Shown: in pieces, positions 30,991-35,107 of the stretch
Layout: each line of letters begins with the position of its first letter
Position numbering within the stretch: the first letter of the stretch is position 1
DNA from: Stramenopiles sp. TOSAG23-2
Lineage: Eukaryota
DNA length: 46,827 nucleotides
NCBI GenBank assembly: GCA_900128395.1
Contig: LT649277.1
Span: 1-46,827, forward strand
Direction of reading: 5' to 3'
Translations under genes and position numbers: made by a program
The notes under the pieces: model-generated
What the model was told of the DNA's origin: nothing
Databases searched by the model: none
Seen by the model: only the letters and a program-made list of their open reading frames with translations

Positions 30991-33900
30991 TTACCAGCAG
31001 TATATCTTCATCCCTTTCACTTGTTGATACCCGTTTGATCCATCTTCTTTATATTGTTCTATAGCATTTAATTGTGATATCATATTATCACTAAGTTGAT
31101 TATTAGATAGCCACAATCTATTTAATGTATTGTTTGTTTTTAATACATCAATAATACTTTGTATTCCACTATCATCAGTAATATTATTACCAGCTAGCCA
31201 CAATACCTCTAATGTATTGTTTGTTTTTAATCCGTCACCAATACTTTGTACATCAGTAATATTATTATCATCTAGGCGCAAGTACTTTAATGTATTGTTT
31301 GTTTTTAATACATCAATAATACTTTGTATTCCACTATCATCAGTAATATTATTACCAGCTAGCCACAATACCTCTAATGTATTGTTTGTTTTTAATCCGT
31401 CACCAATACTTTGTACATCAGTAATATTATTATCATTTAGCTCCAATGTCGTTAATGTATTGTTTGATATTAATCCTTCACCAATACTTTGTACATTAGT
31501 AATATTATTATTCTTTAGGTCCAATACCTGTAATGTATTGTTTGTTTTTAATCCTTCACCAATACTTTGTACATCAGTAATATTATTATCAATTAGGTAC
31601 AAGTACTCTAATGTCTTGTTTGTTTTTAACAATTCACCAAGAAGAAGATGCCGAAGAAGAAGCACGAGGAAAATGAGGGGCGTGAACTTGTTGTGCCAAT
31701 AACGGATGGTAATGATTACAAAAGGCCGGAAGATAGTGGCAAAAGGATGATGATGCCTGTATCGTTTGTTTTTAATCCTTCACCAATACTTTGTACATCA
31801 ATAATATTATTATCAATTAGGTACAAGTACTCTAATGTCTTGTTTGTTTTTAACAATTCACCAATAGCTAATGCATCCTCATCCGTAAGATTCTTTCCAT
31901 CCAAATCCACTTTCGTCTTCCCATCAAATTCTTTTTCCCATTTAATATACAAAGGTGTTTTTTGCACAGCTATTGATAGAGGTGGTGGTCCAGGTAGAGG
32001 CAGCGGCGGCGGCGGTCGCCCCACTCCAGGTGGAGGCGGTGGGGCATACAAAGTTGTTTTTTCCACTTTTCGCTTTGCTGCTTCAGCATTCATTTGTCTC
32101 CTCCTGTCTTCGTTAGGATCAATACCTTTACTATTTTTTTTTCGTCTTGGAGGCGGTGGGGCATACAAAGTTGTTTTTTCCACTTTTCGCTTTGCTGCTT
32201 CAGCATTCATTTGTCTCCTCCTGTCTTCGTTAGGATCAATACCTTTACTATTTTTTTTTCGTCTTGCAACAAGTCTTTTCAACTTTTGTAACCTCTCTTG
32301 TTCTTGCTTGCTTTTTTGCCGCTCTGCAAATTCATTTTCTTGCTTTTCAATATAACCTGCACTATGATGTTGATCCGTTGTATATCCATGCTTCTTTAAA
32401 ATTGGCAAATGTTTAGGATGAACCCAATGGATGCTACCTGTTTTCACATTGAATACTTTTGCAATTTCCCCTGCATTGACTAACGCTTTCCAATTCCCGT
32501 TAGTATGATTTTCTAAAAGTTCTTTCAGTGCACCATATGTATGTTCAAGCAACGTTTTGCTTTCATTTTCTAATTTGTTTTTATATATTTTGCCATCTTC
32601 AATATTTTTATGCATATTATTAACCATCTTCTCTACGTCTTTTGCTTTGCTAGATAAGGTTACTATTTTCGTATAAAACGTATTGGCATTTTTTGATCCA
32701 TCGTGTAAACTTGATGGAATTGGTAATTATTAACCATCTTCTCTACGTCTTTTGCTTTGCTAGATAAGGTTACTATTTTCGTATAAAACGTATTGGCATT
32801 TTTTGATCCATCGTGTAAACTTGATGGAATTGGTATACCACTAATAGCACCGCCTATTAATATTAATTTTGAAATAACAAACAACAAAGGAGCTAAACGC
32901 TCTAACAATGGCCCTGGAACTTCCACCTCAAATCCATCATGCAATGGTTTATCATCTACTTGGATTAAATCTGGTAAAAGTGTTGGAGCTTCATCGCATA
33001 TAAATAGTTGAAAAAATTGTTTCCATTTCGTCTTTTCCTCGGCCCATTTTTTAATTTTTGACAATTTAAACATTTGATTATCCCACCATTTTTGTGCTTT
33101 ATGTCTTGTATCTGCACCAGGGCCGGAGGAAAATGTCTTTCGAAAACCGCCCATTTTTTAATTTTTGACAATTTAAACATTTGATTATCCCACCATTTTT
33201 GTGCTTTATGTCTTGTATCTGCACCAGGGCCGGAGGAAAATGTCTTTCGAAAACCAGGTTTAACAACTATAATTCGTGGTACATCGGAACGATCAATATT
33301 TACAATTAAAGAAAATGTTGCATCCATTTTACTAATCAATGTATTAAATCCATCTTCCAACGAATCTAAGATTGTCATTTGTTTCTGTTCGATGGCAGAT
33401 AATTGTAATTTCATAGCGTGTTGATTTTCGATCATTTCTAACTGGTTATTTTGCATTTTTTTTTGGTTATTATATATTGCTGTTGCACGAATGGTTTGTT
33501 GACCTCTAAACAAATTTTTTTCTAATAGAGTTGTACAACTTTTTCTTTTTTTTGGGTCAATTTGAAGCATATCTTCTAGTAATTTTTGAAATGGGCGATC
33601 TGAAATTTGTTGTATTTCATTACTCGGATTAAAATCAGGGTCTATTAAACGGTTTGGAATATTTGGATGTTGGCCATTTTCAATTTCATCCTTCGAGAAA
33701 AAATCTTTACCAGTAAACAATTTATATAAAACTAACCCAAGTGGGAAAATATCTTGACTGATACTTGCTTGTATGCTTTTATTGTTGTTTTCATCAATAA
33801 TAGCTTTTGCTACTTCTGGTGAAATATACCCAGGTGTCATACTAATCCCGTTATATTTCGATGTTGGTACCTCGGGTTTCTCCCACGTAGTTTCACCGGT

Positions 33901-35107
33901 TTCTTCATTCCAGTAATATTCCTTACCTGAATTTGGGTCTGGTACTTTCTTCCACATATCATTTTCATTAATATCTTTTTCAAATCCTAATTTAGTACAA
34001 AGAAATTTCCCAAGTTTTCCCATCGTTAAATTTCCTGCTTTTTCTTCATCAATAAAACACGAATCGAAATCAATTACTTTGAATTGTGTTTTACCTTTTA
34101 CTTGAAAACGAACAAAATTGCCAGCTCATCGTTAAATTTCCTGCTTTTTCTTCATCAATAAAACACGAATCGAAATCAATTACTTTGAATTGTGTTTTAC
34201 CTTTTACTTGAAAACGAACAAAATTGCCAGCTGGATTGTGTATGTTCAAGTAGGTCCAGTGTTAGAAGATACTTTTTATAAAAATAGTTAATTAGTATTT
34301 TATTATCAGGAAAGAAAGTGAAAATAAATATATCCTCGTCGTTTTAAGAGATTCAAACTTACGTTTGACATCACCATGCACAATACCAAATTTATGTATA
34401 AATTTAAAGCATTTCAATAATTGTTTTGCAATAATTAATTTATCGGGATATTCCCAATCGCTAAAATATGATTTAATTTGTTCTGATAAATTCCCTGTAT
34501 TATCATCCATTCCCTCACCCAATTCCATGATTAAGGCACTATCACCAGTTGGTTCTCCACTTTTCGGATCACACAGTTCCTCCTCCCACTCTTCATAAGA
34601 AACTATGAAATTACTAGTATCATGGCCCTCTCGTTCCGAAAGAAATTCAAGAACGTTTCTTTCCAGTTGTAATGATTTATCTCCTTTTTCCCCTATTTTT
34701 GCTACGTAACCCTTTGATTTCCCTTTCTTTGCACATCTTCTTATACTAGTTTTCCCACTTGATTTTTTCTCGTTGTCATATAGACTGATAGTATATTTGC
34801 CTGCTTGGATACTTGAACTCCTTCTCATTCGACTTGGTGGTGCCGGGGCTTTCTTTACTGAAGCAGATGGCGTGATGGAAGGTGCACTATCTATGCTATT
34901 ACTACGATTTGCGGATTCCATGTTTTCTGATATGGCACGATGAAACTTTTTGATATGCCCAGCTTTAAAGCCATATTCTTTTAGTTCAGCATCATCAATA
35001 TCACGTACATCGGCAATGCAATCATAGCCTTCTTCTTCCAGCTTAGTATAAAATTTTTCCAAATTATATTGTTTTAATAATTGTTGTAATTCATTTTCAT
35101 TATCCAT
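30991..35107 (-). CDS. Multidomain SAM - protein kinase (with inserted WW) - coiled coil - COR-C/TORNADO1-like domain - Pro-rich linker - LRR cassette; disrupted as assembled
   Basis: Five ORF pieces join into one frame of 1146 codons after splicing intron 34362-34231 (gtaagt...ccag, giving HGDVKPGN) and removing extra copies of 106, 107, 110 and 224 bp. SAM motif LKQYNLEKFY..LEEEGYD..LKEYGFKAGHIKKF. Kinase motifs VAK, HGDVKPGN, IDFD, TPGYISPE, DIFPLG. Confidence 0.8.
31540..34232. repeat. Five local direct duplications inside the kinase-LRR gene
   Basis: 34021-34126/34127-34232 (106 bp); 33042-33148/33149-33255 (107 bp); 32616-32725/32726-32835 (110 bp); 32031-32147/32148-32264 (117 bp); about 31540-31640/31764-31864 (about 101 bp, flanking a 123-bp insert). 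Confidence 0.93.

Follow-up and report, generated by a model that had tools for sequence, protein, structure and literature searches.

A gene for a putatively cytosolic SAM-kinase-LRR protein of a marine stramenopile, probably split by its deposited assembly, with an unnamed kinase-associated domain

Described systems and the locus

ROCO proteins, among them LRRK2, the Dictyostelium Roco kinases and plant TORNADO1, are large cytosolic proteins that combine leucine-rich repeats (LRRs) and other repeats with a protein kinase. Plant LRR receptor-like kinases also carry LRRs and a Ser/Thr kinase in one polypeptide, and NLR-type receptors place a C-terminal LRR cassette under differing N-terminal heads. 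A gene that recalls each of these systems lies on the minus strand, from 35107 to 30991, of a 46,827-nucleotide (nt) stretch of DNA from Stramenopiles sp. TOSAG23-2 (assembly GCA_900128395.1, contig LT649277.1, positions 1 to 46,827). This whole stretch, referred to as the window, is AT-rich (about 30% GC). In the deposited sequence the gene is spread over five open reading frames (ORFs). Quite likely the deposited contig mis-renders what in the organism, a marine protist with AT-rich DNA and few introns, is a single ordinary gene, intact and with two exons; its product would then be a cytosolic SAM-kinase-LRR protein.

With the ROCO proteins the locus probably also shares a common logic, in which repeat-mediated sensing controls a kinase. 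It differs from them in that Roc and COR are missing, the LRRs are C-terminal rather than N-terminal, and the kinase is nearest to TTK rather than to the LRRK type. By analogy, the protein may perhaps work like a ROCO protein, yet it is no member of that family. In brown algae, ROCO candidate receptors are reported to have shuffled LRR exons (PMC11378527). These candidates, like the NLR-type receptors, resemble the stramenopile protein in the placing of a C-terminal LRR cassette under differing heads. Unlike in NLR-type receptors, no NACHT, NB-ARC or Roc switch lies between head and LRRs here, and no NACHT or NB-ARC family of Pfam is matched by any piece of the gene.

The plant LRR receptor-like kinases differ from the window protein in several respects: here there is no signal peptide evident by eye and no conserved transmembrane helix, the LRRs lie C-terminal of the kinase, and they are of another type. 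The catalytic loop of the window protein is nevertheless non-RD, as in the plant proteins. Non-RD kinases are linked to pattern-recognition receptors. Among solved structures, the dual-specificity kinase TTK/Mps1 is the best match to the kinase of one environmental relative, P0003 (E 8.9e-11). This similarity is weak and the domain context is another one; in place of HRD there is HGD or WGD, and the activation segment, a long one, contains a WW domain in the window protein.

The true sequence relatives are environmental proteins: the P0014 cluster, P0003, P0002, P0025 and P0028. With P0014 the gene product shares one high-scoring segment pair (HSP) of about 750 residues. Family and gene have in common a SAM domain, or in the gene a SAM-like region, ahead of the kinase, a (H/W)GD(V/I)KPGNF...DFD core, a coiled coil and, in the domain that follows, each of the three motif blocks. 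The relatives differ in how they end, which is with a FYVE domain, with a CC-aliphatic-aliphatic-X sequence or directly after the domain. Among the matches listed, none of the 30 relatives scanned contains an LRR, a WW domain, Roc or COR.

Reconstruction of the gene

When one intron is removed and the duplications are collapsed, minus strand 35107..30991 yields 3438 nt, that is, 1145 codons followed by one terminal stop. What is taken out comprises the intron, one copy each of repeats of 106, 107 and 110 nt, and 224 nt at an insert; an in-frame repeat of 117 nt is retained, and its collapse gives 3321 nt. The initial annotation had proposed that the ORFs form a single continuous frame of 3438 nt, and the rebuilt coding sequence (CDS) bears this out, with identical length and the single stop at its end. 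The peptides quoted in that annotation fall in stop-to-stop ORFs at 34292..35254, 32965..34125, 32663..33157, 31716..32726 and 30991..31779 and in a small one at 34091..34261, all on the minus strand. No break interrupts the remaining long ORFs of the window.

Exon 1 (34363..35107, minus strand) begins with the ATG at 35107, encodes the SAM-like domain, a linker and the kinase N-lobe as far as HGDVK in the catalytic loop, and stops one base into a codon. The intron (34231..34362, minus strand) measures 132 nt in the natural, collapsed form, with a GTAAGT donor at 34362 and an AG acceptor at 34232-34231. Splicing joins HGDVK to PGNFV...DFD and so matches the (V/I)WGD(V/I)KPGNF...DFD of the relatives. 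The intron is called because of these GTAAGT...AG signals, the restored catalytic loop and the collinearity with relatives. Two indels found in a public sequencing run, X4 (+2 nt at 34288 and +1 nt at 34293), both fall within the predicted intron, which agrees with an intact gene.

Collinearity with an intact protein supports the reading of the five ORFs as one gene. Residues 11-761 of the collapsed protein align with residues 409-1074 of P0014, an intact protein of 1189 residues, in a single BLASTP HSP (E 7e-74). This HSP spans the intron as well as the 107- and 110-nt junctions, both of which lie within the domain that follows the kinase. The collapsed protein is also collinear with P0003, P0002, P0001 and P0004. 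Natural variation reads in the same frame: 14 of the 19 variants listed for the non-repetitive coding part are synonymous in the collapsed frame, and so are 11 of 14 among those listed when DNA runs alone are counted; there are 38 further variants. The evidence shows an intact multidomain kinase gene under purifying selection, and the initial claim of one gene in five ORFs is upheld both by the P0014 alignment and by the presence of the collapsed form in public runs.

Repeats and the deposited assembly

The breaks in the frame coincide with exact repeats, which were found with Tandem Repeats Finder and a second repeat tool and whose exactness was confirmed by script. All lie on the minus strand. 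The 106-nt repeat (pair 34021-34232, extra copy 34127..34232) has 2.00 copies at 100% identity and no flanking microhomology. Its unit begins at the acceptor AG, and the AG of the second copy (34126-34125) would restore the frame if used, so that even the duplicated form could still splice in frame from there. The 107-nt repeat (pair 33042-33255, extra copy 33042..33148) and the 110-nt repeat (pair 32616-32835, extra copy 32616..32725) both shift the frame; the 117-nt repeat (32031..32266) is in frame and repeats 39 residues. Flanking microhomology is absent from three of the four two-copy repeats and amounts to 2 nt in the other. Within the LRR part, a 123-nt insert unrelated to LRR sequence (31641..31763) has a 101-nt direct repeat on either side (31540-31640 and 31764-31864, one mismatch), and no second copy of the insert is found within the window. 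Over the whole window there are seven exact tandem repeats with periods of 40-400 nt: four in this gene, two in the LRR array of a neighbouring gene, where they have the natural periods of 78 and 87 nt, and one intergenic. The defect is confined locally, to this gene. As an alternative route to an open frame, a canonical intron that excises one 107-nt copy was considered and dropped, as by eye the unit offers no AG-GT arrangement.

Part of the stretch is contained in 20 public runs from 13 studies. Four of these, X1, X3, X4 and X15, were compared as Logan contigs; the study behind X1 also comprises a further run, X2. X1 is the fullest run, with 0.85 of the sampled words, and is possibly the source run. 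One of its contigs, of 11,377 nt and depth 150, covers 32158-35350 without the extra copies of 110, 107 and 106 nt. A 629-nt contig of X3, a seawater metagenome from a second study, is without those of 110 and 107 nt, and contigs of X4, from a third study, are without those of 110 and 106 nt. The unbroken X1 contig speaks against a real repeat, because reads across a repeat junction would branch the k-mer graph and break the contig. Near the insert, a 91-nt unitig of X1 (31779-31869, 0 differences) exits the window just before the insert, and its 8 loose letters are those of the next LRR unit's start, which hints at two adjacent LRR units without the insert.

Of the five disruptions, at least the extra copies of 106, 107 and 110 nt look like additions made during amplification or assembly and not like natural sequence. 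They probably stem either from overlaps left unmerged at gap closure or from amplification chimeras, and the 123-nt insert is probably a mis-join. Since public runs contain the collapsed form, it is the deposited assembly that makes the gene look hidden and split.

SAM, kinase and WW domains

For the domain assignments, five pieces that span the whole CDS were scanned against Pfam at E<=0.1. At the N-terminus, a SAM-like domain (residues 5-60, about 34928-35095, minus strand) is matched near full length by SAM_TNK (E 0.0018, 18.7 bits, cut-off 25) and SAM_1 (E 0.0033, 18.2 bits, cut-off 23). The region of this domain and the kinase N-lobe is collinear with P0014 (BLASTP E 7e-15), in which SAM_1 scores 98.8 bits.

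The kinase is read in two lobes. The N-lobe matches Pkinase over profile positions 14-125 (E 0.00059, 19.8 bits, below the cut-off of 31.7), and the C-lobe (33507..34124, minus strand) over positions 152-263 (E 3e-12, 46.9 bits, same cut-off). The C-lobe runs from PGN and DFD through a long activation segment to TPGYISPE and the C-terminal subdomains. Across both lobes the motifs YVAKI, LERNVLEF, HGDVKPGN, DFD and TPGYISPE are present, and each of the catalytic residues (Lys, Glu, Asp, Asn and Asp) can be read; the catalytic loop is HGD, and thus non-RD, DFD replaces DFG, and SPE is the equivalent of APE. By its Pfam matches and its motifs, the gene belongs to the eukaryotic protein kinase superfamily.

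The WW domain (33868..33957, minus strand) lies between DFD and TPGYISPE. PF00397 matches residues 57-84 of the piece scanned over profile positions 4-31 of 31 (E 3.3e-10, 40.2 bits, cut-off 26.9), and the sequence, W..(19)..YYWN..TGETTWEKP, has the features of a WW domain, which are two conserved Trp residues about 22 apart, a central YYxN and a terminal P. A WW domain had been noticed from the start and its presence stands, whereas its placing as a separate module after the kinase does not, since it sits inside the activation segment. Such a position makes for an unusual architecture. No WW domain occurs at the activation segment of P0002, P0003 or P0014, the relatives that retain the region; a variable insert is found there. 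The kinase is followed by a coiled-coil linker (33312..33506, minus strand), which aligns with P0003; for the homologous region of P0004 the model gives long helices (residues 2-56 and 59-85).

With the middle domain and the LRR cassette described below, the order is SAM, kinase, WW, coiled coil, middle segment and C-terminal LRRs, as first proposed; the Pfam scan, the reconstruction and the collinearity with P0014 concur in it.

The middle domain

Between the coiled coil and the LRR part lies a conserved kinase-associated domain (32382..33311, minus strand) of about 230-245 residues after two extra repeat copies are removed. Its motifs are F(S/Q)L(I/M)VN..SDVP, FQLFICDE(A/G)P.LLP, PLHDGFEVEVPG..L..LAPLL, GIPIP, Y.ALKELL and GSIHWV. 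A phmmer search with a 144-residue core against 1.84 billion representatives returned 31 matches at E<=1e-3, of which nine reach E<=1e-10 and the best 3.2e-19; one match, the low-complexity repeat protein P0009, was set aside. In the resulting alignment, A1, three conserved blocks flank an acidic, variable linker. The window protein has the three blocks in the position that defines the family, C-terminal of a kinase and coiled coil. Since no polar residue is invariant, the middle domain is probably no enzyme.

All ten matches that were looked up are unnamed proteins of metagenome assemblies, labelled only "hypothetical protein" or "serine/threonine protein kinase". Pfam scans covered 30 of the 31 relatives, all but P0022; for the 20 members of profile A2 the results comprise 25 of the 28 families matched. 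Upstream of the domain, Pkinase is matched at E<=1e-3 in P0002, P0003, P0005, P0014, P0025, P0028 and P0031, and a weak remnant is seen in 2 of 20 A2 members. The domain follows a kinase wherever upstream sequence exists, except in P0026, which has a different N-terminus with no family match. In the P0014 cluster (P0014 with P0037, P0045 and P0048) SAM and Ank are combined, P0037 also has ARM, and the C-terminus is FYVE. P0025 and P0028 contain Ank, and P0025, P0028 and P0029 end in CCTVL, CCTIA or CCTLL. These CC-aliphatic-aliphatic-X ends resemble a lipidation signal. The kinases of the relatives also fall into two classes: in the Ank-kinase relatives P0025, P0028 and P0029 the kinase is of the standard HRD form and is matched by PK_Tyr_Ser-Thr as well, and the SAM subgroup has WGD or HGD. 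The domain is thus found with kinases of two types and with more than one kind of membrane-targeting end.

In Pfam, no family matches the two pieces of the gene that hold the middle domain, nor the domain in the relatives, and none of five proteins matched NCBIfam. A profile search of the PDB sequences gave one chance-level row (E 0.48). Word-indexed protein searches, which are weak evidence, found nothing with the middle piece or the kinase/WW piece, and profile A2 led only to P0025. A scan of JGI metagenome contigs with the middle piece gave 154 pattern matches and 0 relatives, and in the ESM Atlas neither the middle piece (best 0.79) nor P0004 had a usable match.

The globular part of P0004 was modelled alone with AlphaFold2 from 32 rows, because fold searches with the whole protein were swamped by the long coiled-coil helix. 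The model (mean pLDDT 84.9, pTM 0.81) predicts an alpha/beta fold in which a small sheet and a bundle of helices accompany a long hydrophobic helix at the centre. Compared with 48,161 PDB representatives it reaches Z 3.5 at best, with no chain at 5, and the best Foldseek match in the PDB has E 0.26. By the calibration of the tool, models with no clear match typically still reach Z 7-8. The modelled domain thus appears unusually isolated, and an absent match is no proof of a new fold. Judged from the sequence comparisons, the middle domain defines an unnamed family of environmental eukaryotic kinases.

The LRR cassette and its neighbour

After the middle domain comes a proline-rich linker (31980..32045, minus strand), APPPPPGVGRPPPPLPLPGPPP, which contains a PPLP motif and lies ahead of the LRR cap. 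A predicted complex between the WW piece and the proline-rich piece scored 0.02, which speaks neither for nor against their interaction. The C-terminal LRR cassette (30994..31949, minus strand, with the stop at 30991-30993) consists of a cap, YIKWEKEFDGKT.VDL..KNLTDEDALAIG, units of 26-29 residues of the form ...NNITDVQSIGEGLKTNNTL..., and a conserved tail, QYK.DGSNGYQQV. With a repeat period of 78 nt and matches to LRR_4 (E 3.9e-18, 65.5 bits, cut-off 27), LRR_6 (E 1.2e-13, 50.4 bits, cut-off 23.4) and LRR_1 (48.1 bits), it is that of an LRR protein.

The whole cassette, cap, units and tail, recurs on a second gene in the window (4627-7209, minus strand), with DNA identity of 86% over 650 nt and 88% over 192 nt; the two caps are 79% identical in protein. 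This gene encodes 861 residues, in which a MACPF/CDC-type pore-former head is joined to the LRR cassette and C-terminal tail of the kinase gene. Its N-terminal head of about 340 residues matches stonustoxin (PDB 4wvm), with E 1.4e-10 for the beta chain (residues 16-344) and 3.8e-08 for the alpha chain, and its match to the Pfam family Stonustoxin_helical is weak. The LRR array of this neighbour (4932-5314) has two exact in-frame tandem repeats, one of 87 nt (2.09 copies) and one of 78 nt (2.97 copies), which could be recent unit expansions or, like the extra copies in the kinase gene, products of the assembly. Between 321 and 685 contigs per run were placed on the stretch, with many from each run on the LRR part of the kinase gene; 120-256 per run fit two places, and summed contig depth, which is no measure of copy number, is highest over the LRR part. 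This suggests that the cassette belongs to a multi-copy family.

Alternative explanations

Several observations weigh against the reading of the locus as one intact gene that the contig has mis-rendered. Logan contigs prove presence and not absence, and the duplicated form could be a minor variant or occur in X2. None of the contigs compared reads through the 117-nt repeat, where X3 and X4 lack coverage and the X1 contig begins only at 32158, or through the inside of the insert, and no RNA contig in these runs crosses the intron. The metatranscriptome X15 holds two exact contigs (33662-33969) that comprise the WW domain and its flanks, and in this RNA library they could be carried-over DNA. 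Both SAM matches score under the Pfam curated cut-offs. By eye, no glycine-rich loop is recognisable in the kinase N-lobe, and for this reason kinase activity is uncertain. Were the duplications real in the sequenced cell or strain, the gene would be a pseudogene, recently inactivated after several small tandem duplications. They are, after all, present in the window itself, further near-exact tandem repeats, with units of 72-126 nt, lie outside its genes (12215-12537, 19669-19848 and 23781-23952), and the sister run X2 was not part of the comparison. However, a single gene has four two-copy repeats of 100% identity in a span of 2.2 kb, and none of the window's other long ORFs is broken; the likely source, X1, has the collapsed form in a single 11.4-kb contig with no branch at a repeat junction; X3 and X4 have the collapsed form too; and natural variants are mostly synonymous. 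A recent pseudogene is therefore improbable. Still less credence, indeed next to none, can be given to several separate genes for SAM/N-lobe, kinase/WW, middle domain and LRRs. The ORFs are separate as deposited, and many environmental relatives are short (98-400 residues), though these come from short contigs. A kinase cut between HGDVK and PGN...DFD would not function, a single collinear HSP joins the product to 1189-residue P0014, and the breaks are absent from natural contigs.

The remaining alternatives concern what kind of protein the gene encodes. The middle segment had been likened to the domain found C-terminal to COR, which would make the protein a degenerate ROCO/TORNADO1-like protein that lost Roc. 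LRRs and a kinase within one cytosolic protein are an architectural echo of this and nothing more, and LRRK2 repeat models match two relatives (ANK_LRRK2, 38.1 bits, in P0028; ARM_LRRK2, 22 bits and below cut-off, in P0037). But the five pieces of the gene, like the 30 of 31 relatives scanned, have no Roc, Ras or COR match in Pfam; the one PDB-sequence row is at chance level; and no ROCO structure is among the fold matches, a result that is inconclusive by itself. With the middle domain also outside every Pfam family, the COR connection has no support and a ROCO origin is highly improbable, while the accompanying remark that no Roc GTPase P-loop is visible agrees with the scan of the whole CDS, in which no Roc or Ras family appears. 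A membrane-spanning receptor kinase, in which the 19-residue helix LAPLLFVISKLILIGGAISG crosses the membrane and the LRRs lie outside the cell, is only slightly less improbable. In the window protein this helix has a Kyte-Doolittle mean of 1.87, and membrane prenyltransferases are among the weak top rows of the fold comparison (Z 3.2-3.5). Against this, the 19-residue mean exceeds 1.6 in only 2 of 11 members, the helix is packed within a confidently modelled globular domain, and the FYVE or lipidation-type ends of the relatives lie C-terminal of it and must be on the kinase side. The LRR units, which we take to be of intracellular ITD-type, count against it as well. No signal peptide is evident by eye. 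A conserved transmembrane segment was dropped on the hydropathy of the 9 members below 1.6. Because the helix is rarely above that value, is buried in the model and has FYVE or lipidation-type ends downstream in relatives, the protein is read as cytosolic or peripheral; the same ends of the relatives favour the earlier view of the LRRs as cytosolic.

Proposed mode of action

The gene would thus encode a cytosolic protein of about 1,100-1,150 residues, in which a SAM-like domain is followed by a divergent Ser/Thr-type kinase with an embedded WW domain, a coiled coil, the middle domain, the proline-rich linker with its PPLP motif and the C-terminal LRR cassette. The SAM domain and the coiled coil would gather kinase molecules, the LRR cassette would bind a ligand or partner, and the WW-bearing activation segment and the conserved middle domain would control kinase output. 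The presence of the same cassette on a stonustoxin-like MACPF head 26 kb away would fit a set of LRR sensors with exchangeable heads, signalling in one case and pore-forming in the other. A bolder picture, which is rather unlikely as a whole, would make the middle domain a new fold with a regulatory or membrane-docking role in protist-specific kinases, let the WW domain gate the activation loop through the protein's own PPLP linker, and see in the two genes a NACHT-less, NLR-like system whose LRR cassette exchanges rapidly between pore-former and SAM-kinase heads.

Other features of the window

Just upstream of the start codon, at 35072-35220, summed contig depth is 10-20 times that of the neighbouring sequence in X3, X4 and X15; the element there is probably repeated or else of low complexity, resembling (CAA)n. 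The tandem repeats that lie outside genes have units of 126 nt (12215-12537, 2.5-2.6 copies, exact over 12215-12531), 97 nt (19669-19848, 1.9 copies, 98%) and 72 nt (23781-23952, 2.4 copies, 96%). By eye, three unbroken ORFs on the minus strand resemble topoisomerase I (17058-19289), a papain-type cysteine protease (41705-42853) and a zinc-knuckle/RING protein with low-complexity tails (43456-46200). They look like ordinary eukaryotic ORFs of housekeeping type.

Implications

Annotation would score this gene as a pseudogene or as five fragments, yet in the organism it is quite likely intact; where this assembly shows exact repeats in two copies of some 100-120 nt, they are best treated as artefacts until reads confirm them. 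Cytosolic LRR-kinase signalling proteins are a known kind; new here are a kinase-associated domain that has no name, the placing of a WW domain in the activation loop and the shared LRR cassette. Among the papers listed by literature searches, none treats the middle domain, a kinase with a WW domain within its activation loop, or marine protist families of LRR-MACPF or LRR-kinase proteins. The unnamed domain is a well-defined target for structural and functional work among environmental eukaryotic kinases. A kinase with an inserted WW domain, and an LRR cassette common to it and a MACPF protein, are both unusual and together suggest that this uncultured marine protist has LRR sensors of modular build, which bears on the origin of LRR-based recognition systems outside animals and plants.

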